Notes under the pieces: generated by a model
The model's input: the letters and a program-made list of their open reading frames with translations, nothing else
The model's database searches: none
Told to the model about the DNA's origin: nothing
Translations under genes and position numbers: made by a program
Shown here: piece after piece, positions 1,577-27,898 of the stretch
Position numbering within the stretch: the stretch's first letter is position 1
Layout: each line of letters opens with the position of its first letter
Assembly: GCA_037137655.1 (NCBI GenBank)
Contig: JBAXJX010000001.1
Coordinates: 33,188-97,187 of the forward strand
Source of the DNA: Candidatus Falkowbacteria bacterium
GTDB taxonomy: Bacteria; Patescibacteriota; Patescibacteriia; Patescibacteriales; UBA12465
Length of the DNA stretch: 64,000 nucleotides
Reading direction: 5' to 3'

Positions 1577-4619
<3,043 letters not shown>

Positions 4620-8290: not shown

Positions 8291-8726
8291 ATACAAAATA
8301 AATCCAGCGCATAAAGTCCAATACGTGCAAAAAGGCCGTTTGGGTGGTAATAGTTTTGGGCAAAGAATGATGACTAGCCAATGGCCAGTTACAATTTTAG
8401 CTTTAGTTGTTTTAGTTTTTGTTAGTATGCCAACAGTTAAAAATTATTTAAAGCAAAAGGAACTTGACCGTGAAATTGCTGATGTTTCAGCCGAGGCGAC
8501 CAAATATGAAGATCGAAACAAGGATGTTAAAAATATGTTACATTATTTAGAGTCGGATCAATCCGTGGAGGATCGTGGCCGCTTAAATTTAGGTTTAAAA
8601 AAACAAGGTGAAAATGTTATTGTGATTAGCCGGACCAATAAAGTTGAGGGCGCTGGTCAAGCTGGTGGAGCAGCCATGGACGATCAATCTAATCCTCAAA
8701 AGTGGTGGCGCTATTTTTTTGACTAA
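8277..8726 (+). CDS. Septum formation initiator (FtsB/DivIC family)
   Basis: The tracked ORF starts at 8241, but ATG 8277 (MSRDKY..) is the more plausible start and overlaps the ATPase stop by 14 nt. It has a single TM helix, then a coiled coil, then ..SDQSVEDRGRLNLGLKKQGENVIVI, which is typical of the FtsB/DivIC C-terminus. Confidence 0.65.
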   Translation: MSRDKYKINPAHKVQYVQKGRLGGNSFGQRMMTSQWPVTILALVVLVFVSMPTVKNYLKQKELDREIADVSAEATKYEDRNKDVKNMLHYLESDQSVEDRGRLNLGLKKQGENVIVISRTNKVEGAGQAGGAAMDDQSNPQKWWRYFFD

Positions 8727-12232: not shown

Positions 12233-12808
12233 ATGGAAAATGAAGAAAAAATAATTGCTAAATGCCAAGCCGGAGACAAAGAAGCCTTCAGTGTTCTTTA
12301 TGATTTTTATATTGCCAAAATTTATAACTTTGTTTTTTATAAGGTTTTCTCTAAAACGGAAGCAGAAGATTTGGTTAGCCAAGTTTTTTTGAAAGCTTTA
12401 AAAAATATCAATAAATTTACAACTAAGGAAGGTAATTTTTCAGCCTGGTTGTATCGGATTGCTCGCAATACCGTGATTGATTATTATCGTTCCAATCATG
12501 ATAATTATGATATTGAGGATTTTTGGGATTTGCCGGCGGATGATAATATGTTTAACGAACTTAATGTTAAATTGGAATTTGGTCGGGTGAAAGATTTATT
12601 GCAGAAGTTTAAACCGGTTCAGCGTGAAATAATTATTATGCGCTTGTGGGATGAATTGTCTTATGCGGAAATAGCTAAAGTTTTAAATTTAAGTGAGACA
12701 AATTGTCGGATGATTTTCTCGCGGGCTATTTCTGATTTGCGTGGCGATGCGGCGCAATGGTTACTCTTATTAATAATTAGTAAACAAATTATATGCCTAA
12801 TGAAATAA
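12233..12808 (+). CDS. ECF-type RNA polymerase sigma factor (sigma-70 family, group 4)
   Basis: Region 2 (FSAWLYRIARNTVIDYYR) and region 4 HTH (LSYAEIAKVLNLSETNCRMIFSRA). 191 aa. Confidence 0.85.
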   Translation: MENEEKIIAKCQAGDKEAFSVLYDFYIAKIYNFVFYKVFSKTEAEDLVSQVFLKALKNINKFTTKEGNFSAWLYRIARNTVIDYYRSNHDNYDIEDFWDLPADDNMFNELNVKLEFGRVKDLLQKFKPVQREIIIMRLWDELSYAEIAKVLNLSETNCRMIFSRAISDLRGDAAQWLLLLIISKQIICLMK

Positions 12809-14331
12809 AAGAAATTTTACAAGATTTATACTTGATTGATGGTGATTTAAAAAAACATGAAAAAGAATTACTTAAAATCATTAACGAGCTACTAGCTAAG
12901 CGACCAAACGCCAAGTTTGATGCTAAATTCGCTAGCGAGTTAAAAGAAAAATTGCTGTTAGAGTTTGAAAAAGATAAAAGTGAACATAAAAATATTTTAT
13001 TAACTAACATATTCTCTATGAAAAAAATTGTATTTTTTTCTGGTGCCGTCGCATTTTTAATTTTATTGGCTTTAGTGCCAATGATTAATAATTTTTACCA
13101 CCAACAAAAACCAGGTAATGCCACTATTGTTTCAAAAAATAGTGGTCACGGCGAAATTGCCAAAATCGCTGATAATGCTTTTGGCTCATTAGCTTCTTTA
13201 AGTAATGTTTCCGGTGGGTCGAAGACTGATTCTTTGACTGCCAATGCAGCGCCTAAAACTACGTCAGTTGCGCCTAGTATAGGCTTAGTGGCTCCGGGCG
13301 CAGCAGTTTCAAGTAAGATGATGCCTCCTTATGAAATGATAAATTATAAATATGTTTATAAGGGAGAGGACTTTAAATTGGATTCTGATAAAATGGAAGT
13401 GTTTAAAAGAATTAAGGGCGGAAATAATTCCGATGGTATGGCTAATTTATTATCGAGCAATATTGGTTTAGGCTTAATTAATTTTAATAATCAGAATCAA
13501 TACGCTTTGCAAAATGTTTCCTTCGCTCAAAATCAGCCGTATGGATATTACTTTAATATTAATATGGACGAAGGTAGCATTTCACTTTATCAAAATTGGA
13601 ATTATTGGCCACAATCAAAATGCCAAGATCAAGCTTGTTTTGATGCTGAGAAATTAACCAAAGCAGATGTGCCAAGTGATGAACAGTTAATTTCTATTTC
13701 TAATGACTTCGTAAAAAAATATGGTATTACCTTAGATTCTTATGACGCTCCAGAAGTCGTTAAGACATCAAATATTATGTATGCTGGTGCCATGGTTAAA
13801 TCCGCAGTCGCGATTGCCCCAGTTGACGAATTTATTCCAGAATATGTGAATGTTATTTATCCATTAAAAATTAAGGATAAGGTTATTTATGAAAATGGTG
13901 CCGGAGCCAAGACTGGTTTATCAATTACGATTAGCGTAAGAGAAAAGAAAGTTAGTTCGGTTTATAATCTTAATACCCAAAATTATCAAAGTTCGGATTA
14001 TGCGACTGAAAATGATTTTTCTAAATTGAAAAATATTGCGGAGAAGGGTGGTTTGTATTCTTGGGATAATCCAAGCGCTACGAAGACGGTGGAGTTAGAG
14101 CTTGGCACTCCGAGTGTTGTATATATGAGATATTGGCAATATTTAAATAATAGTTCGGAAGAGCTATTGATTCCAACTTTAGTTTTCCCAGTCTCCAGTA
14201 CCGATTCAAGCATCAACAGTTATCAAACAACCATAGCTTTACCACTAGTTAGAGATATCTTAGATAGCCAGACTAATGTTGGCGGTGGTGTTATTACTCC
14301 AATGATGACTACCGAAAAAGCCGTGCGATAA
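12793..14331 (+). CDS. Membrane-anchored protein, candidate anti-sigma factor
   Basis: Its start overlaps the sigma-factor stop by 16 nt. The topology is a cytoplasmic N-terminus of about 75 aa, one TM helix (IVFFSGAVAFLILLALVPMI) and an external domain of about 420 aa. The function is inferred only from position and topology. Confidence 0.4.
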   Translation: MPNEIKEILQDLYLIDGDLKKHEKELLKIINELLAKRPNAKFDAKFASELKEKLLLEFEKDKSEHKNILLTNIFSMKKIVFFSGAVAFLILLALVPMINNFYHQQKPGNATIVSKNSGHGEIAKIADNAFGSLASLSNVSGGSKTDSLTANAAPKTTSVAPSIGLVAPGAAVSSKMMPPYEMINYKYVYKGEDFKLDSDKMEVFKRIKGGNNSDGMANLLSSNIGLGLINFNNQNQYALQNVSFAQNQPYGYYFNINMDEGSISLYQNWNYWPQSKCQDQACFDAEKLTKADVPSDEQLISISNDFVKKYGITLDSYDAPEVVKTSNIMYAGAMVKSAVAIAPVDEFIPEYVNVIYPLKIKDKVIYENGAGAKTGLSITISVREKKVSSVYNLNTQNYQSSDYATENDFSKLKNIAEKGGLYSWDNPSATKTVELELGTPSVVYMRYWQYLNNSSEELLIPTLVFPVSSTDSSINSYQTTIALPLVRDILDSQTNVGGGVITPMMTTEKAVR

Positions 14332-14358
14332 TTTACGAATCCCAAATTATCAAAACAT

Positions 14359-14391
14359 AAAAAAAGACTCAATAAAATTGAGTCTTTTTTT
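14359..14391. terminator. Bidirectional intrinsic terminator
   Basis: AAAAAAGACTC-AATAAAATT-GAGTCTTTTTTT: a perfect stem with an A-run on one side and a T-run on the other. Confidence 0.8.
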
Positions 14392-14485
14392 GTTTGCTCG
14401 CGTATAAGGATGATTTCCGAACTTTTAGCAACGTAAATATCGGGAATATTAAACAATTACTATTACTAATTATTTAGCTTTTATT

Positions 14486-15388
14486 CTATAATGTTTCTTC
14501 GTATGATTGTTTGATGATATCAAATACATCATCAACCTCTTTTAGCGATTTAACTTTAATTCTTCCTTTATAACCCCACATATGCGAACTTATATCGGTC
14601 ACTAATCCTTTTGGGTCATTATACTTAGGACTTCTCACTAAAACATCCATTACATTTTTTCCAAATTCAAATCTAGTAAAACTTTTTGTAGTCCTAAAAG
14701 TAATACCGGTTTTTTGATTGGCAAATTCTTCAACTTCCGGTAATGTTTGTATCTTTTCCTGAAATTTATAAAATATTTCTTTAATTTCAGCAGATGAATT
14801 ATGTCTTGTTAAATGAAATTCAATATTATACGTTTCTTCATTATTTATCTTTGTATTTTCTACACTTTCACGTGTCTTTTTAGCCTGATTTGGAATATAG
14901 ACATTTTCTAAATATAAAATATCTTGTTTATATGGAACGTATTTTATTAATTCTACACTTTCTACCTGTTGAACAGCTATTATTGTGCGATTATCAAAAC
15001 CCTGAGCGACTAATATAACTCGCGGGCTCGTCCAATTAACTCTTTCTTCTTTGCCAAGTTTGTCAGCAACTAATAAATCAAAATGTTTTTTATTTTTTTT
15101 GAGCCAATCTAAATAAAAAAGGCCTTGAACAAAAATAGCATTATCTTGACCCCATTTATACTCAATAATTACTGGAGAATTTGTTTCATCTAGTGCTATT
15201 GTATCCATTCTCCCGCCTTCGCTAGTTGGATATTCTTTAGCTAAAAATCTCATACCTAAAAGTTCCTCAAGATTATCAGCAAAAAAATCTCTAAGCTCTG
15301 CCTCGCTATTAAAATGATTTATATCTAAAAAGACTTGGTTCGCCTTTTTATTTTTCATTTGAAATATTGGCATATGTGTTATTAGCAA
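14486..15388 (-). CDS. NucS/DUF91-like PD-(D/E)xK nuclease domain fused to a DUF5655-like C-terminal domain; third gene of the R-M operon
   Basis: SEAELRDFFADNLEELLGMRFLAKEYPTSEGGRMDTIALDETNSPVIIEYKWGQD is the D..E-x-K core pattern of NucS-like endonucleases. The C-terminal 100 aa resemble DUF5655 (from memory). The gene starts 7 nt after the res stop. The true start may be the internal MKNKK. Confidence 0.5.
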   Translation of the reverse strand: MLITHMPIFQMKNKKANQVFLDINHFNSEAELRDFFADNLEELLGMRFLAKEYPTSEGGRMDTIALDETNSPVIIEYKWGQDNAIFVQGLFYLDWLKKNKKHFDLLVADKLGKEERVNWTSPRVILVAQGFDNRTIIAVQQVESVELIKYVPYKQDILYLENVYIPNQAKKTRESVENTKINNEETYNIEFHLTRHNSSAEIKEIFYKFQEKIQTLPEVEEFANQKTGITFRTTKSFTRFEFGKNVMDVLVRSPKYNDPKGLVTDISSHMWGYKGRIKVKSLKEVDDVFDIIKQSYEETL

Positions 15389-15395
15389 TTAAATA

Positions 15396-17963
15396 TTATT
15401 CTTCAAGTAAATTCTCTAACTCACATCTAAACTTATCTTGGCTCTTTAAGAGGGTTCCATTTTTTAAATATTCAAAAAATTCAGTATAACCATTAGGGCT
15501 TAAAAAATGAAATATATATACTTCTTTTAATCCTTGCTCCTCTAATTTCTTATTTAATCTTTTAAAATGATCTAAAGCATACTTATACTTTGCTTTGTTT
15601 TCATCACAATTATCTTTATCTGCTTTTATTTCTATAACTAAAAAAATTTTACTCTCCCCGCTGGTAACTTTTATAAAAAAATCTGGGTTAAACGATAAGT
15701 TTTTTAATTGATGATTGTTTTTTCTCCAAGTATACTCAATACTATAGAATCCTCTATCCCTTGATTTTATCCAAGTTTCAATTTTTTCTGCAATATCTTT
15801 TTTACAGAGATACTCAATAAAACTTCTTTCAGGCTGCCCTTTCGTAATAACAACATTTAAAGGAGTTTTAAATAAATATTCATTTTGCACTTTAATTGCA
15901 CTGCGAGGCAAACTTTCATCATCAACCAGTTCTTTTATAATATTTTTTTGGTCTTCATTAACTTCACTCTCAAAATTATTTGTATAGAAAAGCGATGAGT
16001 CTCTTCTAAAATTACCTATTCCCAGACTTTCCTTCTGTAATTCGACAGTTTTTATTATAAATGGTTCTTTAACTTTTAGTTGCGGGATTACAGTTTTACC
16101 TTTTTTTCTTAAAAGAGTGCCAAATGATTTTAAGATTGTATTCCTGTTCTTATCTATAAGTTTATTTCCATTAATACCTACTTTCTGCATTGATTTAAGA
16201 ATAATTTCTTCGATTTTTTTTCTTGGAGGTAAGTCATTCTGTGTATATTTTTCTTTGCCCATTTGTAAAATTCTGCCTTCCCAATCCCTCATTTCAAATT
16301 CATCATATATTCTATCCACTACCTCGCCCACTTCCCATGTTCCATATTCTATAATGTAATTTTTGTCTCTCAACAATCCACCCGATAATGATTCAAAAGT
16401 AGTACCTTTTTCTGTTTTTATTACTTGGGATTCAAGTCTTATACCTTCTTTTTCTATTCTTGAAAAATTATACACCTCTTCATCTCTTTTGTGATTAATT
16501 TCTACCTCCTCTTTGTCATAATTTAAATTATAAACTTCAAAATTATATTTATATCTGTCGCCCTTCCTCAATATTTCACTATAAACTTTTGTTTCTATTT
16601 CAAGAATTTCATCAACGAGGCCTCTAATATTCTTACTCCATGAATCATGATTAAAAACAATTACCTTTGGTTGTGGAGACTCATATTCTTTAGGGACTCG
16701 CAAACCTCTCCCCAAGACTTGGGCTATTAAAAGCTTAGAATTAAAAGCCCTGTCTTCCCATGGCACAATTTGAAAAACATTTTTTACATCCCAGCCTTCC
16801 GTGAGCATGGAAACTGAAATTATCCATTCAACGGGATCATTTTTATCATCAACATTTTTTAATTTTATCACGTTAGCTTTATGGTCTTTATGAGACGTAA
16901 CAATTAAAACCTTTTTCTCAAGATTTTCTTTAGATATTTTTTCTTTTGTTTTTAAAAAATCAATTAAATCTTCTCTTAGATTTTTTGCTTTCGCTATATC
17001 TTGAGTTATTAAAATTGATAGGGGCTTAACTTTCGGATATTTATCAAAATTATCTTTGTGATTTTGATAGATTTTTTGAAATTTTTCATTTATTCCCGAA
17101 CTATCATCTTTTTGCACATACTCAATATTTTTAACAAATTTATTCTCAATGGCTCGTCTTAAAGAATATCTATAAATTACATCATTAAAATATTCATTAT
17201 CAATATATGCGGTTCCGGTAAAGCCTAAAATATATTGAAAATTGTAATCATTATTTATAAGAAAATCTTTCCATTTTTTTACATCCTTATCACTGGATTT
17301 ATTAAAAATATGGTGAGATTCATCATTTAACACAAGGGTTCTTGCTCCGTCCCCCTTTAAACTATCTTGAATAGAGGAGCCTGTTCTCCCATATACCGCG
17401 TGTATATTTTCGATACAAATATCACCCTTTTTTATTGTTACATTGGCATCGATAATTCTTGGATTTTTTAAAATCGCATTTGTTGGAATAGATTCTTTTA
17501 GCCTACTATTGCCACTTAAGCTTTCAAATTTTTCTTTTAATCCTGATTCAATAGTTAGTGAGGGGCAAAGCACCAAAACCTTATCAACAAAACCTAGCCC
17601 AAACATTATTTGGGCTATACCATACATAACATACGACTTACCAGTTCCTGTCGCAAGATCTATGTTTGCAAAAAGTTTATTTGTAATTTGTAATTTTGAT
17701 TTGTATTCATCAAGTGAAGAATATTTTACTTGAAGCTCTGTATTTCTTGAGTAATTTTCTGTAATTAAATCATCAGTTTTTTGATATTTACCTCCAACAA
17801 GAAAAATAATAGAATTTCTAATTGCTTCTTTTTGATATTCTCTATCACCACAAAGTTTATCTAAAAAATCATCCCATTCATCAAGTCTTAATATAGTAGG
17901 GTCGAAGACTGGGTTTATTTCTAAGATTAAGTCTTGATTTTTAAATACATGTATATCTTGCAT
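15396..17963 (-). CDS. res: Type III restriction enzyme, Res subunit (SF2 helicase plus C-terminal PD-ExK nuclease)
   Basis: Walker A TGTGKSY, motif II LNDESHH, motif III GFTGTA, motif VI QVLGRGLR. C-terminal nuclease pattern FNPDFFIKV..LVIEIKADKD. 855 aa, 11 nt downstream of mod. Confidence 0.85.
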   Translation of the reverse strand: MQDIHVFKNQDLILEINPVFDPTILRLDEWDDFLDKLCGDREYQKEAIRNSIIFLVGGKYQKTDDLITENYSRNTELQVKYSSLDEYKSKLQITNKLFANIDLATGTGKSYVMYGIAQIMFGLGFVDKVLVLCPSLTIESGLKEKFESLSGNSRLKESIPTNAILKNPRIIDANVTIKKGDICIENIHAVYGRTGSSIQDSLKGDGARTLVLNDESHHIFNKSSDKDVKKWKDFLINNDYNFQYILGFTGTAYIDNEYFNDVIYRYSLRRAIENKFVKNIEYVQKDDSSGINEKFQKIYQNHKDNFDKYPKVKPLSILITQDIAKAKNLREDLIDFLKTKEKISKENLEKKVLIVTSHKDHKANVIKLKNVDDKNDPVEWIISVSMLTEGWDVKNVFQIVPWEDRAFNSKLLIAQVLGRGLRVPKEYESPQPKVIVFNHDSWSKNIRGLVDEILEIETKVYSEILRKGDRYKYNFEVYNLNYDKEEVEINHKRDEEVYNFSRIEKEGIRLESQVIKTEKGTTFESLSGGLLRDKNYIIEYGTWEVGEVVDRIYDEFEMRDWEGRILQMGKEKYTQNDLPPRKKIEEIILKSMQKVGINGNKLIDKNRNTILKSFGTLLRKKGKTVIPQLKVKEPFIIKTVELQKESLGIGNFRRDSSLFYTNNFESEVNEDQKNIIKELVDDESLPRSAIKVQNEYLFKTPLNVVITKGQPERSFIEYLCKKDIAEKIETWIKSRDRGFYSIEYTWRKNNHQLKNLSFNPDFFIKVTSGESKIFLVIEIKADKDNCDENKAKYKYALDHFKRLNKKLEEQGLKEVYIFHFLSPNGYTEFFEYLKNGTLLKSQDKFRCELENLLEE

Positions 17964-17974
17964 AATAATTGTGT

Positions 17975-19981
17975 TTATACGGTAAAAATTTCAGTAAAAT
18001 CATTTCCATAAATATCTGTGTAAACAATCATGATTTTTTTACCAATTTCTTTTTTCTTAAAAGTTATTTTTAATTCTTCATTTTTCATTTCTTTTAATCC
18101 CGCTCTAATATTTTTATTATCATCTTGCTCGTCTTCAACTTCTTTGACCTTTTTCTTGGGCAATAAATCATCGGCAAAAAAAGAATCTGTTAATATAAAT
18201 TGCTTATTATCAAATTTTTTATCAACAAAAACAGCAGATAATGTTTCAAAATTATCAAAAATTTCTCCCTCTTCGTCTTTATAATACTGACTTCTAAATT
18301 CTTTTATAACTATTTGAATTTCATCGCCTACCTTTTTTAAAACAGATTTAACTTCTGGTGCTTTAATAAAATGAAAACCTATTGTTTCATCAAGATCATT
18401 AACATTTTTTTTGCTTTGAGGTTGTCTAATTTTTTGAAAAGGAATTTTATGAAGCTCCCTAATGACTTGGTAAGGGATTTTTAAAAAATAATATCTCAAT
18501 CCCTCAATCTCATGATAATCTGTCAAAAATTCTATATTGTTAGCTGGTGCAATAATATAAATTCTTCCGTTTATTTTTCCTCCAATAATTTGATGAATAT
18601 TCTTTAGATAAGCCTCGTCAATATTTGAATTTTTATATGTATTATAATCCCAAATTTTTACAGAATAACTTCCTTTCTTTCCATCGAATTCAAAACCTGA
18701 AACTTTATGTTTTTTTAACTCAATTTCAAAAAGACCTGAAACAAATTCAAGATATTTTGTCCATTCAAGATTAAGAACTTTTTTAAAATCATAAAGCCCT
18801 AGTGTGCAAGTTGTAAAACTTTTTGCCTTTTTTTCGTATTTCTTTTTTATATCATCTAAATCTTTACTATTTTGAATTTGCAAAATCCGCTTTTGCATAG
18901 TTAGATATGCTAATTTTCCCAAATCACAAGTTATCCATTTGCGATTTAGTTTTTCGGCTACCGCCATAGTAGTTCCAGAACCACCAAAAAAATCTAACAC
19001 TATATCACCTTCGCTTGTATGCTGTAATATTAGAAGTTTTATTAATTCCTCGGGTTTTTGAGTTGGATAATTTAATCTCTCTTTTGATGTGGAGGCCATT
19101 ACTGGGACATCTATTATTTCGTCATATTCTATTTCAATAAAATCATTAATATTCTTGCCTTCTTTCTTAACATAGGTTTTACCATAATAAACGGTTCCGT
19201 CCGTTCTTCTTCTTTTGATTAATGCATATCGTTTTCCGTCTTCATCCGTTTTATTATATCTACCCATTTTTAAATCTTTATACGCCGAATATTGTTGATT
19301 CCAAGTATAATTTTCTCCCTTAGTATAAAATAAAATAGTTTCATGTGCTTGTTGATACTGCCCCTTACTTTCAGTTCCTCTAAATCCTTTATTCCAAATA
19401 ATTTCATTTACAAAACTATTTTCGCCAAAAATTTCATCCATTAAAATTTTAATATAGTGAATTTTTTTCTCATCTAAATGGATTAAAATACTTCCATCAT
19501 CCGATAAAATTTCTTTTGCGAGAATCAATCTTCTTCTAATAAATTCTACAAATTGAGCATGTTTTCTTTTATCGGTGTAGGCTTTTTGGTCTCTGCTTCC
19601 AGAAAAATCATCAGCAGTTGCAAACGGTGGATCAATATAAATAAGTTTGATTTTTCCCTTAACTTTATCTTTAATTAAAGGGTCTCTATTTTCATAAATT
19701 GTTTTTAAAAACTGGAGATTGTCGCCAAAAACAATCATATTTTTCCAGTCATCATCGAAAGCACTATGCTCACTGCCATTAAAAATTTTTTCAATTTGTA
19801 ATGGAACAGGAAAAACTCCGTCCTCGTTGGAAAGCAAATCCTCTTTTCTCATTTTTCCAGAATAAACCAACTCGTATTCTTTTTGTTTTGTTGGAAAGAG
19901 AGCATATTTAAAAGTCTCGGGAATTTCCTTGCCGTCTTTAAGACATTCTATTAAAAACTCTTTATCATATTTATTTATCAT
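17975..19981 (-). CDS. mod: Type III R-M DNA methyltransferase, Mod subunit (beta-class N6A/N4C)
   Basis: Catalytic motif IV IYIDPPF lies upstream of AdoMet motif I DFFGGSGTTMAVA, which is the beta-class order, with a variable region between them. 668 aa. The mod-then-res gene order is typical of Type III systems. Confidence 0.85.
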   Translation of the reverse strand: MINKYDKEFLIECLKDGKEIPETFKYALFPTKQKEYELVYSGKMRKEDLLSNEDGVFPVPLQIEKIFNGSEHSAFDDDWKNMIVFGDNLQFLKTIYENRDPLIKDKVKGKIKLIYIDPPFATADDFSGSRDQKAYTDKRKHAQFVEFIRRRLILAKEILSDDGSILIHLDEKKIHYIKILMDEIFGENSFVNEIIWNKGFRGTESKGQYQQAHETILFYTKGENYTWNQQYSAYKDLKMGRYNKTDEDGKRYALIKRRRTDGTVYYGKTYVKKEGKNINDFIEIEYDEIIDVPVMASTSKERLNYPTQKPEELIKLLILQHTSEGDIVLDFFGGSGTTMAVAEKLNRKWITCDLGKLAYLTMQKRILQIQNSKDLDDIKKKYEKKAKSFTTCTLGLYDFKKVLNLEWTKYLEFVSGLFEIELKKHKVSGFEFDGKKGSYSVKIWDYNTYKNSNIDEAYLKNIHQIIGGKINGRIYIIAPANNIEFLTDYHEIEGLRYYFLKIPYQVIRELHKIPFQKIRQPQSKKNVNDLDETIGFHFIKAPEVKSVLKKVGDEIQIVIKEFRSQYYKDEEGEIFDNFETLSAVFVDKKFDNKQFILTDSFFADDLLPKKKVKEVEDEQDDNKNIRAGLKEMKNEELKITFKKKEIGKKIMIVYTDIYGNDFTEIFTV

Positions 19982-20056
19982 ATAGATATATAATAACTTT
20001 TTATAGACAAATTATCAAGCAAAATTAAACAAATTAATACTTATTAATAATACTTC

Positions 20057-20085
20057 TTGCCTTTCGGTTTACTTTCGGTTATAAT
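20057..20085 (+). promoter_or_regulatory. lexA promoter with a tandem CTTTCGGTT repeat in the spacer
   Basis: TTGCCT (20057-20062), a 17-nt spacer, then TATAAT (20080-20085). The spacer is CTTTCGGTT-TA-CTTTCGGTT (20061-20069 and 20072-20080; 11-bp period). Confidence 0.5.
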
Positions 20086-20110
20086 ATCAATATAGCAATT
20101 ATTAATAATT

Positions 20111-20719
20111 ATGTCTATGATTACCAGAAGACAAAAAGAAACATACGATTATATCGTTTCATATCTTAATAAAAATGGCTATTCTCCGTCATATTCAGAG
20201 ATAGCTTATCATTTTCATCTTTCATCGGTAGCTACCGTCTATGATAGTGTTATTCAATTAGTAAAAAAGGGGCTTTTAAGAAAAATAAAAGGCACTCCAA
20301 ACGGTTTAGAGCCAATTAAAAGAACAATGGCTGAAATTTTTAATATTCCCCTTGTTGGCACAATTACTTGTGGACAACCCATTGAGGCCATAGAAATACC
20401 GGACACGACTATTGAAATTGCCAAAGACCGACGTTTTCAAGAGGGCGAACTCTATGCCCTTAAAGCTAAAGGCAACTCCATGATTGGGGACGGTATATTT
20501 GACGGTGATTTTCTCATAATCAAAAAACAAGAGTGGGCTGATGACGGCGATACCGCCGTGGCGATCATCGACGACAACGAGGCCACGTTAAAAAAATATT
20601 ACAAAGAAAAGGGACAAATAAGACTGCAACCGGCCAACCCCGCTTTTAATCCGATATATCGCAAGGAAGTTGAAATTAGAGGAATTGTTGTAAAAGTTAT
20701 TAGGGATTTAAAAAAATAA
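20111..20719 (+). CDS. lexA: LexA-family repressor (winged-helix DNA-binding domain plus S24 self-cleaving peptidase)
   Basis: N-terminal RRQKETYDYIVSYLNKNGYSPSYSEIAYHFHLSSVATVYDSVIQLVKKGLLRK is LexA_DNA_bind-like. Catalytic Ser in GNSM and Lys in EATLKKY. The cleavage-site region reads VGTITCGQP, so Cys-Gly replaces the canonical Ala-Gly. Confidence 0.85.
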   Translation: MSMITRRQKETYDYIVSYLNKNGYSPSYSEIAYHFHLSSVATVYDSVIQLVKKGLLRKIKGTPNGLEPIKRTMAEIFNIPLVGTITCGQPIEAIEIPDTTIEIAKDRRFQEGELYALKAKGNSMIGDGIFDGDFLIIKKQEWADDGDTAVAIIDDNEATLKKYYKEKGQIRLQPANPAFNPIYRKEVEIRGIVVKVIRDLKK

Positions 20720-20743
20720 CAACTTAATATATTTTACAAAGTT

Positions 20744-20779
20744 ATACGCCCGCAACCCTAAGGGGCGAGCGTATTTTTA
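20744..20779 (+). terminator. GC-rich hairpin plus T-run after lexA
   Basis: ATACGCCCGC..GCGAGCGTAT (one mismatch) followed by TTTTTAATTT. Confidence 0.55.
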
Positions 20780-20790
20780 ATTTCAAAAGT

Positions 20791-21591
20791 ATGAAAGCCA
20801 CTCTCAAAGATTTAAAAATTAAAATGACCAAGTTGGCCAAGGACTTTTCCGAGGAGGAAAATATCTTTCAAAGAACCTTGGCGATTTTTAAATTTATTGA
20901 GGTGTTGCAGAAAAACAAGGACACTAAAAAAGCCCTTGATTCCCTGCTAAGTAAAACCAGTAATGAAATGGATTTCCAGGAATTATCCGATGAGGATGAT
21001 TTGCTTTGCGAAAAGGCTGGCATTGATTGCGATTTCTGGGTTTGCTATGGAGCCTTGGATAAAGTCCACACTTTGATTTTAAAATTTAAAGAAACCGAGG
21101 ACAAACGATATGCCAATAAAGCCATTAAAATGGTTTCGGCCTCGTATTATCCGGAGATATACGGCATTTGTTTTAAAATGGTTGCCGGGTGTTTACTCGA
21201 AAAAATGGAAACCGATTATCTTTTGACCAACAAAAAAGATAAGGAAGAAAAAACTTGCTTTAACAGCCAAAAAAGTATTTTATACGTCAAAGGCTTTAAA
21301 ATCATGATAGCCAAACAGGATAAAGAAACCAATGCCCACAAAATCCTTAAATACATATTCAAGGATAATAAGGACAATTTAAAAGACAATTTTTTCTTCT
21401 CGGAAATAGCCGATGATGTTTTTGAGGACTTGGAATATAAGGACGATAAAGGCAGTTGGAAGAAATATAATCGAACTTGCGAAGTGATAAATGAGAAAGT
21501 TTTAAAAGGAACCAAAAACCTTGTGGATAAGTTTTTAATATACAACAGCGGTCAAAAAGGGTTTTTGAAAATAAATCCTGAATACATCTAA
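20791..21591 (+). CDS. Prophage hypothetical protein
   Basis: 266-aa ORF with prophage-type codon usage. No family recognised. Confidence 0.55.
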   Translation: MKATLKDLKIKMTKLAKDFSEEENIFQRTLAIFKFIEVLQKNKDTKKALDSLLSKTSNEMDFQELSDEDDLLCEKAGIDCDFWVCYGALDKVHTLILKFKETEDKRYANKAIKMVSASYYPEIYGICFKMVAGCLLEKMETDYLLTNKKDKEEKTCFNSQKSILYVKGFKIMIAKQDKETNAHKILKYIFKDNKDNLKDNFFFSEIADDVFEDLEYKDDKGSWKKYNRTCEVINEKVLKGTKNLVDKFLIYNSGQKGFLKINPEYI

Positions 21592-21765
21592 TTTACAGGG
21601 AAAAACAATCGAAACTACCCACAAATTTACCCCGGAACTTTTGGGAACTCGACTTATATACAATAGCCTCATAGTAATATGGGGCTTTTTATTTAGCCCC
21701 AAAAAGGCTATCGCCAACTAAAGGTCGGGGCGAAATTAGTAATTAATAAATTTAAATTCAAAATT

Positions 21766-22038
21766 ATGTTTTACCTGAAAGGTATTATTAAGGACGAAAA
21801 AACTGAAAACTTCGTCCGCAAAGACGGCACCGAGGGACAAAAGAGGATTTTGTTCGTGGAGCCGGAGGGTAGTATTTACCCGATTAGCGTAGACGTGCCC
21901 ATTGGCAAAGCCTACGGCAAAAAAGGAGATAAGGTTGAGGTTAAAGTGAACGTCGCCTCATATTATTTCCAAGACAAACAAAGACGTCGTGGTTTCCTTT
22001 CGGTCTATGTTCCGAAAGAAGAAACCGAAAGCAAATAA
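21766..22038 (+). CDS. Candidate ssDNA-binding protein (gpV-like by size and position)
   Basis: 90 aa, rich in predicted beta-strand, with a basic patch (KQRRRGF). It lies directly upstream of the small coat-protein ORFs, as gene V does in Ff phages. No sequence identity is claimed. Confidence 0.4.
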   Translation: MFYLKGIIKDEKTENFVRKDGTEGQKRILFVEPEGSIYPISVDVPIGKAYGKKGDKVEVKVNVASYYFQDKQRRRGFLSVYVPKEETESK

Positions 22039-22055
22039 TCTAAAAGTTAAATTCT

Positions 22056-22220
22056 ATGGATATTATCACATCGACCACCACCGCCACAACGACAATTTAT
22101 CGGCTAACCGATACCGGAATGGATATGATTAATTTCTTTATCCAATTCCAAACTTTAGCGGTCGCACTTTCGGCGGGTCTGATTGTATTCATTGCGGTGA
22201 TTTTAATTTTTAAAAACTAA
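22056..22220 (+). CDS. Small membrane protein (minor coat pVII/pIX-like), 54 aa
   Basis: Hand-translated; it falls below the ORF-track cutoff. MDIITSTTTATTTIYRLTDTGMDMINFFIQFQTLAVALSAGLIVFIAVILIFKN has one C-terminal TM helix. Its stop overlaps the next start (TAATG). Confidence 0.5.
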   Translation: MDIITSTTTATTTIYRLTDTGMDMINFFIQFQTLAVALSAGLIVFIAVILIFKN

Positions 22221-22336
22221 TGAATATGGCGAATGTAATTATCAACTTGTTTGGCGGTATAGGCTTGGCATTAATTTTGCCTCTTGCCGTTCTGACTTTA
22301 GTTTCAATTATATTCAAAATATTTAGGGCAAAATAA
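22220..22336 (+). CDS. Small membrane protein (minor coat-like), 38 aa
   Basis: Hand-translated: MNMANVIINLFGGIGLALILPLAVLTLVSIIFKIFRAK. A single TM helix with a basic tail, translationally coupled to the previous ORF. Confidence 0.5.
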   Translation: MNMANVIINLFGGIGLALILPLAVLTLVSIIFKIFRAK

Positions 22337-22343
22337 CAAAGAT

Positions 22344-22490
22344 ATGTGTTCACAAAATATCATTAACAACCTGTCGTGCTATCTGGATAATTTCGGTCTG
22401 ATACTTAGGCCGATAACGGACGGCTTGACCATGGGGATTATTTTGGGAACGGTGGTCGGCTTATTCTTGTTATTCATTAGAAAAAATTAA
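22344..22490 (+). CDS. Small membrane protein, 48 aa
   Basis: Hand-translated: MCSQNIINNLSCYLDNFGLILRPITDGLTMGIILGTVVGLFLLFIRKN. C-terminal TM helix plus a basic end. Confidence 0.45.
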   Translation: MCSQNIINNLSCYLDNFGLILRPITDGLTMGIILGTVVGLFLLFIRKN

Positions 22491-22510
22491 AAAGTTAAAA
22501 GCACACACGT

Positions 22511-22789
22511 ATGTTTAACAAAATCAAGAGTTTCGCAAAAGCTAATGCCACCAAAATTTCCGCCATGTCTTTGGCGGTTGTCGGTAGCATGGTTGCCTTT
22601 GGCAATAAAGCTTTCGCCGCTGTCGATGCGGATGTAGCTTCAACTTCCCAAACCGTGGTTACCACGTTGAAAGAAAACGTCACCGGCATTATCACCGCCA
22701 ATATCGCTAATATTGTGATTGTTGGTGTGATCGTTTTCGGTGTCATGTTCGTTTGGAAGTTAAGCAAGAAAATCATGTCCGGTCGCTAG
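22511..22789 (+). CDS. Inovirus major coat protein (pVIII-like)
   Basis: Signal peptide ending ..GNKAFA|AVDADVAS. The mature protein of about 57 aa has the classic layout: an acidic N-terminus (D, D, E), a hydrophobic core (ITANIANIVIVGVIVFGVMFVW) and a basic C-terminus (KLSKKIMSGR). Confidence 0.8.
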   Translation: MFNKIKSFAKANATKISAMSLAVVGSMVAFGNKAFAAVDADVASTSQTVVTTLKENVTGIITANIANIVIVGVIVFGVMFVWKLSKKIMSGR

Positions 22790-22795
22790 TCTAGG

Positions 22796-22834
22796 GAGCG
22801 AGGGGTTGGCTCAAAAGGCTGACCCCTTTCGCTC
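22796..22834 (+). terminator. Strong hairpin immediately after the major coat gene
   Basis: GAGCGAGGGGT (22796-22806) pairs with ACCCCTTTCGCTC (22822-34), with a TT bulge. There is no clear T-run. Its position parallels the terminator after gene VIII in Ff phages. Confidence 0.45.
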
Positions 22835-22862
22835 TAACTTAAATAAAATTATCACTACACAT

Positions 22863-23054
22863 ATGACGTTAAATCTCAAAATGAGCGAAACCACTTACTT
22901 AATAAATTTTTTAAGTGAACGCAAAAAACATTTGGATGAAATGAAATTTATCGACGGATTAGGAGCTTATGAAATTAGAGAATTGAAAATGATAAACGAA
23001 GTTATCGAGAAACTTAAAAAAATGGGCTACTACATTATCATTTTTAAAGAATGA
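22863..23054 (+). CDS. Prophage hypothetical protein (63 aa)
   Basis: The tracked ORF 22806..23054 begins inside the hairpin, so ATG 22863 (MTLNLKMSETTY..) is the more likely start. Its stop overlaps the next start (ATGA). Confidence 0.45.
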   Translation: MTLNLKMSETTYLINFLSERKKHLDEMKFIDGLGAYEIRELKMINEVIEKLKKMGYYIIIFKE

Positions 23055-24838
23055 AAATTATGAAAAACTTTCGGATAAAAAACTTAATATTTCCGGTTAT
23101 CGCTTTGGCCATAATGTTTTTGGGCAAAACAGCCATGGCTTCGACAATCGATTTTAACGGTTTTCGCATTTCCGACGAACAGCATTACAGCGAGGGCGTA
23201 ACCAGTTTTACCGTTTCCATAACCGTGCCGACTGACTTTACCGCCAACTCCGCTTTGGTCTGTGCTTATTCTACTGCTTGGGAAAATTCCAATTATAATT
23301 ATCTCCGCTACGACGGGAATAATATGACGGAAATTTCCAGCGTTCAAAACGGTTCGCAAGTCGGTAAGGTTCGTTTGTTTTATCTTTATAATCCACGACG
23401 AGGCACTTATCTTCTGACCGGTTCGCAACCGCAAAACTGGTATCATGTCCAATGTCGCACGATAGAAAATGTTAACACGCATGTTGTTCCAACGGTCATC
23501 ACTCAAGGTCGCACTTCAAGTGCCGGCAGTCCGTGGTATCACTATTATTCCAGTTCACAGTTCATGCTTAGCTCGCTTTTAATCAGCAACTACGCTTCGC
23601 AGAATACATCGTCCCATTCTCCCGCCTCGCATTTTCTTTACGCCAATCCACGCATGGGCTATGCGGAAATATCAATGCAAGCGGTCAACGCCAATAATCC
23701 ATATTCATATAAATATACTTTCTCCGGAACAAATTACGGTCTAACCAGTCAAATCGTGGAGTTTAAGAAAAAGCCGGATGTTGAAATTACCAATTATACC
23801 CAAGGGCAAACGGTTAACAATCTGCTCGACACCACTTTAACGATAGAGGGTTCCTGTAAAACTAATGGAACAAGTCAATTAACGCTCCAAAATTCATACG
23901 TTCTACCGCAATCTCAACCGACTTGCGATTGTGTTAATAATACTTTTTCTTGTCCTTATAATTTCGGCGGTTATGACAATGTCAGCGTTTGCGTTATCGA
24001 CAAAAACGACACCACGGCTTATGACTGTAAAAATTTGGTTTTGATTAAAGCTCAAATGCAAACCAATTACGGCACTAATCCATATTTCACCGCCATGCCT
24101 TGGTCTTGCGATTTACTCGGTTGTCGTTTTCCTTTGGCCTCAAACGCTTCGTGGAGCTTTGAATATAGTTATGATCAAGACATAACGCCTTATTCACAAT
24201 ACAACGCTCCATTTATTGTCAGGCCGATGAATGTTCCGCTCACCTCCACCTCGACAAAATTATATGTGGCGGAAATAACCAATCCTTATGTTGTCTGTAA
24301 TAATTGCACTTCTTCTTATCAAGTTCTTCAAACGCTTTCGAACACCACGTTAAATAATTTAACGGCCACCAGTTCCGGCTTTATGTTCGGGGGTTTCGAT
24401 ATTTCCACCTCAACTAAATATTTCTTAGTGTCCTTAAAATCAGCAACCAGTTCAACTATATACGAAAAGCAATATATCACGCTTTCATATTCCGCCGCCG
24501 AAAGGCCAAGCGGACAACCGGATTTCATTTGGTTTCAAAACACTAAAGACAAATTAAAAGGTAAATTGATATTCGCTCAAGTGTTCGCTTTTTACGACGC
24601 TCTCTCGGCTTTTCTCAATGCCAGTGGCACCACCGGCAACCCGCTTGTTTTCACCATGAAAAGTATGTCAGCTAATAATCAATTTAATCTCGATATTCCG
24701 ATATTTGATTTTAGTAATTCCGTCGTCGTTAATTTCGCTCAAAGAATGAGGTTTCTGTTTATCGCCGGCATTTGGATTTCTTTCGGATTCTATTTGTGGA
24801 ATATGTTCACTAAGCGATTATTTAGAGAAGACGGTTAA
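23051..24838 (+). CDS. Candidate adsorption/minor coat protein (pIII-like)
   Basis: 595 aa. Signal peptide (..FLGKTAMA|ST), Cys-rich central part, C-terminal membrane anchor FLFIAGIWISFGFYLWNMF followed by basic residues. It is the largest ORF and sits directly after the major coat gene, as gene III does. Confidence 0.5.
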   Translation: MKIMKNFRIKNLIFPVIALAIMFLGKTAMASTIDFNGFRISDEQHYSEGVTSFTVSITVPTDFTANSALVCAYSTAWENSNYNYLRYDGNNMTEISSVQNGSQVGKVRLFYLYNPRRGTYLLTGSQPQNWYHVQCRTIENVNTHVVPTVITQGRTSSAGSPWYHYYSSSQFMLSSLLISNYASQNTSSHSPASHFLYANPRMGYAEISMQAVNANNPYSYKYTFSGTNYGLTSQIVEFKKKPDVEITNYTQGQTVNNLLDTTLTIEGSCKTNGTSQLTLQNSYVLPQSQPTCDCVNNTFSCPYNFGGYDNVSVCVIDKNDTTAYDCKNLVLIKAQMQTNYGTNPYFTAMPWSCDLLGCRFPLASNASWSFEYSYDQDITPYSQYNAPFIVRPMNVPLTSTSTKLYVAEITNPYVVCNNCTSSYQVLQTLSNTTLNNLTATSSGFMFGGFDISTSTKYFLVSLKSATSSTIYEKQYITLSYSAAERPSGQPDFIWFQNTKDKLKGKLIFAQVFAFYDALSAFLNASGTTGNPLVFTMKSMSANNQFNLDIPIFDFSNSVVVNFAQRMRFLFIAGIWISFGFYLWNMFTKRLFREDG

Positions 24839-24849
24839 TCGTTAAAATT

Positions 24850-25263
24850 ATGAAAAACAAAAATCACAACAGAATAATTATTGTGGCGGTCGTGGCCATT
24901 TTAGTCGTTAGCTTATTCAGCGTTCAACCCGCCAAAGCAGGGTTCTTTACGGACACATTGGACGGCATTAAGGCTTTGTTTGATATGTTCAATCCGGCCA
25001 ACCTCGTTCATTACATAGCCAACCTATTCGACACAATAGCCACATTTTTTGTGGGCTTCTTACCTAATAATCAATATTCAACCTATTCGGCAGAATTTAC
25101 CACCTCAATTAATACCGTCGTTCCTTATGTGGTCAGTTTCGACAAGATATTTCCGGTCTTCACTTTCTTCGGCGTGCTATCAATGGTCATATTTATAGAA
25201 ATGATTTATTTCTCTTTTAGATTCGTCAATTACATTGCCGGATATATCAGAGGCGGAAAATAA
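24850..25263 (+). CDS. Membrane protein (pVI-like by position)
   Basis: 137 aa with an N-terminal TM helix and two C-terminal TM helices, located between the pIII-like and Zot-like genes. Confidence 0.4.
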   Translation: MKNKNHNRIIIVAVVAILVVSLFSVQPAKAGFFTDTLDGIKALFDMFNPANLVHYIANLFDTIATFFVGFLPNNQYSTYSAEFTTSINTVVPYVVSFDKIFPVFTFFGVLSMVIFIEMIYFSFRFVNYIAGYIRGGK

Positions 25264-25264
25264 T

Positions 25265-25903
25265 ATGATTAACATTATCACCGGAAAACCCGGCACAGGC
25301 AAAACTTATTATCTCGCTAAACTGGCTCGCAAATTTATTTTAAGCGGATTGGATATTTATTCCAACTTCTTCATTGATAGAAAAAAGATAATTTCCGATT
25401 ACGAAAAATCTTTCAAGTTTAAACTGGCGACATTGTTCCATAAATATTTTTTGGAAGAAAAATATAAACCAGATTACGGACAGCTTATATTTTGGGAAAA
25501 ACTGGACGAGTTTATCGACATCCGAGGAGGCGAGGTTTTAATCGACGAGTGCCAGATATATTTTAATTCCCGCAAATGGAAAGATTTGCCGGAGCGACTG
25601 CAATACAAATTTCAGCAACACCGTAAACATATTAAGCGGGACAGCCAAGGCAAGGTTGTCGGTTTAAATATTTGGGGTGCCGTTCAAAACGTCAAACGTA
25701 TAGATACCGTCGTTAGAGAGCTAGTTAATAATGTTTTTATTATCAAGAAAATATTTAAGTTGTTTATTATCCGCCAATACGACATCGAGGAAATTGATAA
25801 GGAAAGAAAGTATTGCTATTCCACAAATTTTTTTACTTTTAGCCAAAAGGTGGCTTCATCATACGACACTTTTCAAGAGATAGCCGGATTCAGCCGGCAT
25901 TAA
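25265..25903 (+). CDS. Zot/pI-family phage assembly ATPase (N-terminal P-loop domain only)
   Basis: Start taken at ATG 25265 (MINIITGKPGTGKTYY..). Walker A GKPGTGKT, Walker B VLIDECQ, then FQQHRKH..WGAVQNVKRIDTVVRELV, matching the Zot-family HRH..Q..id..vR pattern. 212 aa with no C-terminal TM segment. Confidence 0.75.
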   Translation: MINIITGKPGTGKTYYLAKLARKFILSGLDIYSNFFIDRKKIISDYEKSFKFKLATLFHKYFLEEKYKPDYGQLIFWEKLDEFIDIRGGEVLIDECQIYFNSRKWKDLPERLQYKFQQHRKHIKRDSQGKVVGLNIWGAVQNVKRIDTVVRELVNNVFIIKKIFKLFIIRQYDIEEIDKERKYCYSTNFFTFSQKVASSYDTFQEIAGFSRH

Positions 25904-25954
25904 ATTGCTATACAAAAAAAGGAGCCAACCCGTTAGGATCAGCTCCTTGATTTG

Positions 25955-26251
25955 TTAAGCCGTTTTTTGTTCGACTTGTAGCTCGTAAAAGAGATTAATG
26001 CTTCTGGGCGTTTTCTCTATCACTTTGCCGGTTTCTTTGTCTTTCTTCTCGACGATAACGAAAGACTTAATGGCTTTCTCGCCCTTTTTGACGATATAAC
26101 CGTTCTTGAGCCAGCCTTTAAACGTCAGGCAGTTCTCTTTCGGATTATACTTTTCTGCCTCGGTTTCGCCCCAACGTTGAGCAATCTGCTTTTTGACGAG
26201 ATTCAAAGTGCTTTCCGAACCCGTCCAGTTTGATTTGACCGTAATTGTCAT
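25955..26251 (-). CDS. Small protein with an ArdC-N-like (DUF1738-type) ssDNA-binding motif; the only minus-strand gene of the prophage
   Basis: ..LTFKGWLKNGYIVKKGEKAIKSFVIV..INLFYELQVE resembles the TFxQW..G..VxKGEK...VFN..Q motif of ArdC N-terminal domains (from memory). It is transcribed divergently from the rep side, the position of regulators such as rstR in CTXphi. Confidence 0.4.
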   Translation of the reverse strand: MTITVKSNWTGSESTLNLVKKQIAQRWGETEAEKYNPKENCLTFKGWLKNGYIVKKGEKAIKSFVIVEKKDKETGKVIEKTPRSINLFYELQVEQKTA

Positions 26252-26458
26252 ATTTTTAATGTTGACGACTGATTAATAAATAGCCCTGATAACGTCGTCT
26301 TAAATTATCTATCGGCCACGAGGTGCCAAAGCGACTGATAGCTTGCGACTGTCATAGGTGGAGGCTGTAAGCACTACCTTGATAGGCGAAAAGCCGTCGC
26401 TAAAATGAGAGGCCACAGATAGACAATTTGCGTTCGTTTGTAATTTGGTTTTATTTTG

Positions 26459-26536
26459 ACCGGCCAATAGATTTGTTTTTTTATTTTTCGGCGAGTTTTG
26501 CCCACTCGCCGAAAAATAAAAACAAGCTTGGCCGGT
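26459..26536 (+). promoter_or_regulatory. Extended 78-nt hairpin in the main prophage intergenic region (candidate ori or packaging signal)
   Basis: The outer stem ACCGGCCAA (26459-67) pairs with TTGGCCGGT (26528-36). The inner stem of about 22 bp pairs TTGTTTTT(TT)ATTTTTCGGCGAGT with ACTCGCCGAAAAATAAAAACAA around the loop TTTGCCC. A third GGCCGGT copy lies at 26559-65. Confidence 0.5.
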
Positions 26537-26629
26537 AAATGAGATTTTAGACGAGATAGGCCGGTATGTAATTATTTAACTTGACCATACGCACACACCG
26601 GGAGATTTTTAGAAAATATCAATAAATAT

Positions 26630-27560: not shown

Positions 27561-27562
27561 AT

Positions 27563-27736: not shown

Positions 27737-27752
27737 TTTGATACAATACTAT

Positions 27753-27862: not shown

Positions 27863-27898
27863 CAGAGCCGCTCCCTTTTAGTTACTAAAAAAACGTCT

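Follow-up and report, generated by a model that had tools for sequence, protein, structure and literature searches.

A predicted PDC-S18 family nuclease gene next to a Type III restriction-modification pair of Candidatus Falkowbacteria is a partner-independent add-on

A stretch of 64,000 nucleotides (nt) from a Candidatus Falkowbacteria bacterium (assembly GCA_037137655.1, contig JBAXJX010000001.1, positions 33,188 to 97,187 of the forward strand; hereafter the window) carries on its minus strand a Type III restriction-modification (R-M) pair, mod and res, followed by a third co-oriented gene. Analysis of this third gene, of its product and of the neighborhoods of its homologs places it in the family of predicted nucleases catalogued as PDC-S18. 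It is a partner-independent add-on and not a Type III subunit, because, across many phyla, members of the family are found beside every type of restriction system. Its product may tentatively be explained as an autonomous nuclease, co-transcribed with the R-M genes, that would supply a second, partner-independent layer of restriction, most likely of a Type IV-like kind, the nuclease activity, the role in defense and the Type IV-like mode being what we infer from its architecture and contextual associations.

In blastn comparisons of the window with its closest relative (L001) and with L002, the window and L001 share only two blocks of DNA. One is the side carrying the genes for a LexA-like repressor and the protein p266 (80.5% identity), and the other is a cassette of about 1.05 kb comprising the leader, the third gene and its terminator (14354-15406, minus strand; 95.8% identity), which is bounded on both sides by non-homologous DNA. 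The two copies of the gene are 96% identical and their protein products 99% identical, whereas the Mod and Res proteins of the window and L001 share merely 36% and 22% identity, respectively. The tie to a Type III partner assumed in the original prediction is not supported, unrelated genes having taken the place of mod and res in the nearest relative. The synonymous divergence (dS) between the two loci is 0.11 for the third gene, as against 1.1 for lexA and 2.5 for p266 among the flanking prophage genes, and given this disparity the exchange of the cassette is far more recent than that of the DNA around it, and the R-M module was replaced outright. Such a replacement beside a recently exchanged cassette argues strongly against the third protein being an R-M subunit or a guard specific to one R-M complex. 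In L001, four extra small genes (6611-8389), coding respectively for a protein of 135 amino acids (aa), a DUF1508 protein on the opposite strand and proteins of 152 and 157 aa, separate the PDC-S18 gene, with its 99%-identical product, from the res gene, which is a different Type III one of the HI_1054 family.

Descending the ladder of sequence identity to the third protein, the partner systems are of Type III (99%), Type II (86%), Type I-like (79%), Type II (78%), Type IIB (70% and 68%), Type III (69%), Type I (65%), Type III (59% and 56%) and Type IIB (55%), i.e. the R-M types are interleaved along it. The PDC-S18 gene is the conserved anchor in these loci, beside which R-M modules are swapped. 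Examination of the leaders and downstream regions of 22 loci for an integron-like or other signature of a mobile cassette recovered no motif beyond those of close relatives.

The neighborhoods of homologs were surveyed across 31 distinct loci, that of the window included, with neighboring genes being labeled by means of Pfam scans, as single-seed phmmer searches were too insensitive. An R-M system is present within three genes of the homolog (five in L001) in 23 of these loci, and the gene is nearly always co-oriented with it and operon-terminal, so that the association of the family with R-M loci anticipated in the original prediction is indeed strong. The partners comprise Type III systems (window, L001, L010, L027, L033, L034), an Eco57I-class methyltransferase (MTase) with a GIY-YIG/ResIII helicase (L036), Type I systems (L015, L021, L052 from Formivibrio, the Staphylococcus plasmid pSNJS101, the Acinetobacter baumannii plasmid pDETAB1 and a Rhizobium plasmid), BcgI-like Type IIB systems (L024, L025, L035), a Type ISP system (L057) and pairs of an EcoRI-like MTase with a GmrSD-HNH protein (L026, L031). 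The Type II systems combine a D12 MTase with an HNH protein (L020), or an N6_N4 MTase with a MutH/MvaI-like protein (L029), an EcoO109I-family restriction endonuclease (L058) or the product of a 176-aa open reading frame (ORF) that has no Pfam match (L004). Junctions of 1-22 nt to the R-M genes, or overlaps with them, recur across the loci; in Formivibrio the gene overlaps hsdR by 14 nt, with a BrxR gene adjoining, and in pDETAB1 it is embedded between hsdS and hsdR. In a control set of 83 genes located more than 6 kb away in 18 of the same loci, no R-M family was found among the 25 leading families. The link is hence not special to Type III, contrary to what had been proposed: systems of Types I, II, IIB and ISP and further MTase-nuclease pairs are likewise followed by this gene, and solitary copies occur as well. 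These observations extend the R-M linkage of the family beyond Type I, bacteriophage exclusion (BREX) and defense island system associated with restriction-modification (DISARM) loci to Types II, IIB, ISP and III and to bacteria of the Candidate Phyla Radiation (CPR). No C5-MTase was found among the 98 proximal genes scanned, all partner MTases seen being amino-MTases (N6-adenine/N4-cytosine).

The PDC-S18 protein can exist without an adjacent R-M system, since the gene is solitary in two Mucilaginibacter species, where it occupies a shared position between icd and manA, and in Adhaeribacter pallidiroseus (L051, 8001-8918), where it lies between nuoC (30-kDa subunit) and nuoD (49-kDa subunit) of the NADH dehydrogenase operon. 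For a defense gene the latter is an odd site, reminiscent of one where a selfish cassette has inserted. A role as a Type III-specific third subunit was rejected in light of the diverse partners, the solitary copies and the swapped R-M module of L001 beside a 96%-identical gene.

Other defense genes recovered in the neighborhoods code for OLD-family nucleases, GmrSD, BrxR and a SMODS cyclase resembling those of cyclic-oligonucleotide-based anti-phage signaling systems (CBASS). In L023 (6994-9764) the genes directly upstream of the homolog encode a CBASS-like SMODS nucleotidyltransferase, an ORF of 177 aa, a nuclease of the PDDEXK_1 family and an ORF of 180 aa, with an HsdM-like MTase farther upstream. 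In L026 (10001-14294) the homolog is split into two ORFs of 122 and 141 aa, likely by a frameshift. Next to it comes another DUF5655 protein, which is divergent (307 aa; weak match to HSDR_N_2-like nucleases), and then an EcoRI-like MTase and a GmrSD_N-HNH nuclease, the same pair that follows the gene in L031. Genes for OLD-family or ABC ATPases (AAA_15/AAA_21) adjoin the PDC-S18-bearing R-M operons of L033 (10879-12528, with a TOPRIM domain) and L015 (769-2226), which suggests stacked accessory genes.

The third gene (14486-15373, minus strand) codes for a protein of 295 aa, with a full-length match to the PDC-S18 profile in PADLOC, in which two domains are joined by a disordered linker (mean predicted local distance difference test score of 77.6 for the full-length model and 91.9 for the C-terminal domain alone). 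The N-terminal domain (residues 1-160; 14894-15373, minus strand) is identified by Foldseek searches and conserved residues as a RecB/NucS-type nuclease domain of the PD-(D/E)xK fold. The C-terminal domain (residues 184-295; 14489-14824, minus strand) is a DUF5655 domain according to Pfam, with a modeled alpha-beta4-beta-alpha, YdhG-like fold. Profile searches with the mechanically called 300-aa ORF, which extends to a TTG at 15388, recovered DUF5655 at residues 198-298 above the cut-off (E = 1e-7) and NucS_C at residues 29-100 below the gathering cut-off (E = 0.008). The combination of a NucS-type PD-(D/E)xK nuclease with DUF5655 given in the original prediction is therefore borne out, and the motifs that it quoted, GRMDTIALDE and VIIEYKWGQD, are present.

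Structural searches with the nuclease domain recovered NucS (2vld, E = 3e-5) and EndoMS (5gke, E = 7e-5) and, more weakly, the nuclease domains of Shedu, Cap4 and FokI (for Shedu SduA, 8ti9/8ps5, probabilities of 0.93-0.96 at E of about 0.05). Among 114 diverse full-length members of the family, conservation is 93-98% at E24, E47, D57, D62 and E71 and complete at K73, Q83 and Y87, a set that includes the QxxxY signature of RecB nucleases. Mean column conservation in the same set is 0.36 in the DUF5655 domain versus 0.55 in the nuclease domain. The structural search with the DUF5655 domain gave nothing below E = 1e-3; its best coherent match is the YdhG-like 9t2w_A (template modeling score 0.63, probability 0.91), and two homologs also match DUF1801 (PF08818). 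A search of the Protein Data Bank (PDB) with the 295-aa sequence returned no match even at E of 10, and the Pfam scan of the protein found no domain that reads modified bases, such as those of the SRA, PUA/EVE, winged-helix or DUF262 kind. Relative to the L001 copy the gene has a ratio of nonsynonymous to synonymous substitution rates (omega) of 0.044, i.e. it is under purifying selection. A candidate assignment as a NucS ortholog was rejected, for the N-terminal domain of NucS is absent and the protein scores 20.2 bits with the NCBIfam NucS equivalog NF003270 and 13.8 with NF002876, far under their respective cut-offs of 216 and 252 bits.

The match to PDC-S18 (PDLC04946, E = 4.4e-63) spans residues 5-299 of the 300-aa ORF, with PDLC04945 matched at E = 7.3e-44, and PDC-S18 and PDC-S11 are the only PADLOC families recovered. 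The PDCs are 145 single- or multi-gene defense candidates obtained by "guilt-by-embedding" from genes lodged within BREX, DISARM and Type I R-M loci of RefSeq genomes (Payne et al. 2024, bioRxiv 10.1101/2024.01.29.577857). That paper does not discuss PDC-S18 individually, and its supplements contain no mention of PDC-S18, DUF5655 or NucS. Literature searches returned no paper naming PDC-S18 and nothing functional on DUF5655, only an incidental mention; those on NucS-like proteins with R-M and on DUF91 with defense returned mainly Cas4 or unrelated work and none on this family. By its profile match, then, the third gene is another member of a catalogued, uncharacterized family, and as this family was already known the three genes do not form the new Type III architecture that had been proposed. 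The family is large, with 737 homologs in the collection clustered at 90%, of which the top 120 show 65-99% identity. Clustering at 50% identity yields 1390 clusters with E of at most 1e-3, 641 of them with E of at most 1e-10. Its members occur in the CPR, Proteobacteria, Firmicutes, Actinobacteria and Bacteroidota, as well as in 40 plasmid records, mostly of Acinetobacter and Staphylococcus, including clinical plasmids of these genera. A few phage proteins have the same two-domain fold (e.g. Gp54 of Bacillus phage G, E = 6e-12).

The three minus-strand genes were confirmed by mechanical ORF calls at 14486-15388 (300 aa from a TTG start), 15396-17963 (855 aa) and 17975-19981 (668 aa), which leaves 11 nt between mod and res and 7 nt between res and the third gene. 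The 7-nt gap and the length of 300 aa hold for the mechanical ORF; the 120 closest homologs, however, are all of 289-298 aa and begin with MPIF, and for this reason the start is almost certainly the ATG at 15373, giving a predicted protein of 295 aa and a gap of 22 nt to the res stop codon. No terminator-like structure was found at either junction, and an intrinsic terminator with a 15-pair stem and a T-run lies directly 3' of the third gene (14359-14391, minus strand), its hairpin being kept at the equivalent position in L001. It probably closes the mod-res-third gene unit and may also serve a convergent 512-aa gene. Taken together, the terminator-free junctions and the terminator right after the third gene make co-transcription with mod and res a reasonable inference from spacing and terminator placement. 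Just 5' of mod there is a weak promoter-like site (19990-20018, minus strand; TTGATA-17-TATTAT, 10 of 12 matches), and we claim no promoter, since such sites in the region are no more numerous than in shuffled controls. The GC content of the 14-20 kb segment (0.276-0.300) is the minimum of the window, being at least 0.325 elsewhere; it is 0.298 for the third gene, 0.290 for res and 0.284 for mod, as against 0.35-0.38 for the prophage and host flanks. The segment is compositionally foreign, which upholds the earlier description of it as the most AT-rich stretch and as probably acquired horizontally.

The mod gene (17975-19981, minus strand; 668 aa) encodes a Type III modification MTase, with matches to N6_N4_Mtase in Pfam (E = 2e-50) and MTase_III in PADLOC (E = 2e-56) and, in the PDB, to a Type III Mod protein (6k0w_B, E = 2e-22) and EcoP15I Mod (4zcf_A, E = 4.7e-18). 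Its DPPF motif at residue 117 precedes the FFGGSGTT motif at residue 331, the order typical of beta-class amino-MTases. Directly downstream on the same strand, res (15396-17963, minus strand; 855 aa) encodes the restriction subunit, in which a superfamily 2 helicase module is followed by a C-terminal PD-(D/E)xK nuclease. Profile analysis recovered ResIII in Pfam (E = 1.4e-18) and REase_III in PADLOC (E = 1.5e-13), and the protein shows the Walker A motif TGTGKS105, DESHH214, motif VI as QVLGRGLR415 and PD760 with E778-x-K780 (EIK778-780), with a weak TnsA-like endonuclease match over residues 750-804. Res appears to be divergent, given that a sequence search of the PDB returned no match and the scores against NCBIfam Type III endonuclease models are under their cut-offs. 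By every testable feature of their sequences mod and res are nonetheless predicted to form a complete Type III system, and the description of such a pair with an extra co-oriented gene agrees with the domains and motifs found.

Upstream of mod lies the backbone of an inovirus-like prophage (20111-29517, plus strand), defined by Pfam and PHROGs matches and a tRNA call. On the plus strand it codes for a LexA/CI-like repressor identified by Pfam (20111-20719), p266 (20791-21591), which is followed by small ORFs, p595 (23051-24838), a Zot/pI ATPase related to M13 protein I (25235-25903; Zot PF05707, E = 5e-9; phrog_197 and phrog_1675), a rolling-circle Rep of the G2P type (26829-27560; REP_ORF2-G2P, E = 2e-20; phrog_3419, E = 2.5e-26) and, at 27899-29506, a large serine recombinase. 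The ORF of this recombinase overlaps a tRNA-Gln gene (29446-29517, minus strand) by about 60 nt. The presence of a Zot/pI-type ATPase and a rolling-circle Rep, with neither capsid nor terminase genes, identifies the element as inovirus-like (Tubulavirales); no coat proteins were identified in the prophage. Between a small minus-strand ORF and rep there is a perfect inverted repeat of 19 nt whose loop measures 7 nt (26478-26522; TTTTTATTTTTCGGCGAGT / ACTCGCCGAAAAATAAAAA), possibly a phage origin or a terminator hairpin.

The low-GC block of mod, res and the third gene has the appearance of cargo, situated at the edge away from the recombinase, of this element, which would then span about 14354-29517. 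This reading derives from related loci: in L020, homologs of p98m, Zot, p595, p90 and p266 lie on one side of the R-M module and PDC-S18 gene and the serine recombinase and Rep on the other, so that the block sits between p266 and the recombinase and the circular gene order is that of the window. Further, in L027 a G2P-type Rep adjoins the PDC-S18 gene, and homologs of the serine recombinase occur within 10 kb in L027 and L031-L035. As for the prophage generating single-stranded DNA that the operon was said to adjoin, the inovirus-like element is real, but the operon is probably cargo of that same element rather than merely its neighbor. The ends of the element are approximate, as no convincing att direct repeats or duplicated half of the tRNA-Gln gene were found between 13.5 and 30.5 kb. 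In the CPR, the unit of PDC-S18 and R-M genes travels with serine-recombinase elements, some of which are inovirus-like. Inoviruses of CPR hosts and integration by serine recombinases are already known; the large survey of inoviruses makes no mention of R-M cargo (PMC6813254).

Among the remaining genes of the window, a type IV pilin-like gene (N_methyl; 29667-31235) immediately follows the prophage. On the other side of the cargo, the 512-aa ORF (12793-14331), which has no Pfam match and converges on the terminator common to it and the PDC-S18 gene, overlaps the end of an ECF (extracytoplasmic function) sigma factor gene (12233-12808) by 16 nt and perhaps encodes an anti-sigma factor or membrane partner. 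The 23S (1596-4604) and 5S (4717-4831) rRNA genes appear to belong to a split rRNA operon, as the 16S gene is missing upstream and a gene for a Laminin_G_3 protein (250-1122) stands in its place.

Based on these observations, the following mechanism may be proposed. The third gene would be transcribed last in the mod-res operon, its product forming no part of the Type III enzyme. DNA would be cut by the conserved RecB/NucS-type core (E47, D57, E71-x-K73 and Q83-xxx-Y87), while the variable YdhG-like DUF5655 domain would determine when, or on what, the nuclease acts. The protein would serve as a second layer of restriction independent of the partner. In a Type IV-like mode it would cut DNA that evades methylation-sensitive restriction, and its transfer and expression together with whatever R-M system it adjoins could thereby broaden protection. 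The three genes and the terminator would be carried together as low-GC cargo of the inovirus-like element with its serine recombinase (about 14354-29517). That the protein is an autonomous nuclease is suggested by the intact, constrained nuclease domain next to a variable one, the tight linkage to R-M systems of every type, the want of co-evolution with the partners and the solitary copies. A Type IV-like mode is the most likely by analogy, considering the size of about 300 aa with a nuclease and an accessory domain, the solitary copies that have no MTase nearby and the amino-MTases of the partners. Type IV-like genes embedded in R-M and BREX loci are documented, with GmrSD being one R-M-embedded class (bioRxiv 10.1101/2024.01.29.577857).

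Several points weigh against this explanation. PDC-S18 is itself a candidate defense family, and it is unusually conserved for a defense gene, with 65-99% identity across CPR lineages and an omega of 0.04. The YdhG-like/DUF1801-like fold is not a known modified-base reader, the best PDB match being at the level of the fold. The lack of C5-MTases among the partners is only a weak hint at a Type IV-like mode, for with about 10 Type II-like partners behind it this lack could be due to chance. The Mucilaginibacter gene is vertically inherited at a housekeeping locus, which a role in repair or maintenance would also fit. It is from their spacing that co-transcription of res and the third gene is deduced, and independent confirmation of phage carriage is lacking, in that the third protein has no PHROG match and no relatives on IMG/VR contigs.

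An alternative that we regard as unlikely is that the protein finishes what its partners begin, in the manner of Shedu or RecBCD, with the R-M system making the first break, the C-terminal domain recruiting the nuclease to the ends or activating it there, and the fragments then being degraded. This would explain the pairing with any DNA-cutting R-M type, as the partner systems have no common subunits and are alike only in making DNA breaks, and it would tolerate a swapped partner beside an unchanged gene; the solitary Bacteroidota copies, with no adjacent R-M system to make such breaks, speak against it. The invariant RecB-type QxxxY signature and the resemblance of the fold to Shedu SduA (8ti9, 8ps5) as well as to NucS are consistent with such a function, but the Foldseek E value for Shedu is only about 0.05 and no Shedu model of PADLOC was matched. 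Likewise, the high conservation would suit a generic substrate such as DNA ends, yet YdhG-like domains have no known DNA binding and an unregulated end-degrading nuclease would disturb the repair of breaks in the host. A guard comparable to PrrC, silenced by the R-M complex and released by a phage anti-restriction protein to cause abortive infection, is very improbable. It has a precedent in PrrC itself, as set out in the embedding paper (bioRxiv 10.1101/2024.01.29.577857), and the gene on the Acinetobacter plasmid, between hsdS and hsdR, occupies the very position of PrrC, with operons shared with R-M genes elsewhere. Partners of Types I, II, IIB, ISP and III, however, offer no common protein to bind, the protein is 99% identical where mod and res have been replaced by unrelated genes, solitary copies exist, and the ATPase or ABC domain of PrrC and RloC is missing.

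It is also conceivable, if rather doubtful, that the gene has no part in defense, and encodes instead a structure- or mismatch-specific nuclease of repair or maintenance, akin to NucS or Vsr, or is a selfish single-gene cassette, comparable to a free-standing homing endonuclease, that accumulates where variation is tolerated, for instance 3'-terminally in R-M operons. Such a reading finds some support in the NucS-type fold, the strong purifying selection with very high conservation and the syntenic housekeeping location in the two Mucilaginibacter species; against it, the NucS N-terminal domain is missing (20 versus 216 bits on the NucS equivalog), and partner MTases that modify N6-adenine or N4-cytosine create no T:G repair problem of the Vsr type. 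The insertion between nuoC and nuoD and the discrete 1.05-kb cassette, the dS of which is ten to twenty times below that of its neighbors and points to independent recent exchange, also favor it, though a mobile cassette is not betrayed by any conserved motif or repeat in the flanks. The local R-M enrichment, which is absent more than 6 kb away, and the OLD, GmrSD, CBASS-like SMODS and BrxR defense genes in the neighborhoods speak against this reading.

CPR bacteria largely lack CRISPR, and organisms with such small genomes rely heavily on R-M. The locus is a concrete case of R-M module swapping beside a conserved anchor on an inovirus-like element in a CPR host, and such swapping bears on how these bacteria renew their defenses. 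The function of PDC-S18, once found, would account for an accessory gene met time and again in R-M operons and might reveal a new DNA-sensing domain. An embedded candidate in an R-M operon will not surprise the specialist; the family is still widespread, cleanly defined and experimentally tractable. A broader scenario, to which we attach a low probability, is that PDC-S18 is a general companion nuclease of R-M systems, with DUF5655 being a new module that senses base modification, or the ends or single-stranded DNA arising from restriction; in that case filamentous, inovirus-like prophages of the CPR would bear interchangeable R-M modules, with PDC-S18 as their anchor, and constitute a phage-borne hotspot of defense.

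The third protein is reminiscent of several known systems and differs from each. Two-domain Type IV enzymes such as PvuRts1I/AbaSI, MspJI and Mrr recall its architecture. With Type IV enzymes and the R-M-embedded GmrSD and BrxU it shares a length of about 300 aa, the union of a nuclease with an accessory domain and the location beside R-M genes, but its accessory domain is YdhG-like/DUF1801-like and not of the SRA, PUA/EVE, winged-helix or DUF262 kind. NucS/EndoMS has a nuclease domain of the same RecB-like PD-(D/E)xK fold with the same D/ExK and QxxxY motifs; in it the nuclease is C-terminal, whereas here it precedes DUF5655, about 23 residues standing before the core in place of the N-terminal dimerization and DNA-binding domain. 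Shedu (SduA, DUF4263) is likewise a single-protein PD-(D/E)xK nuclease with a variable sensor domain, with weak similarity of fold at E of about 0.05, but its domains are in the reverse order and no Shedu hidden Markov model is matched. PrrC of the EcoprrI Type I locus is similarly an accessory nuclease encoded inside an R-M operon or at its end; it is, however, an anticodon nuclease with an ABC ATPase, as opposed to an ATPase-less PD-(D/E)xK protein of the DNA-cutting type with unrelated R-M partner types. The closest correspondence in both sequence and context is with PDC-S18 itself, to which the gene is matched over its full length and with which it shares the co-oriented position in or at an R-M operon; while that family was defined from embedding in BREX, DISARM and Type I loci, the gene described here is found with a Type III partner, in a CPR bacterium and on what looks to be an inovirus-like element.

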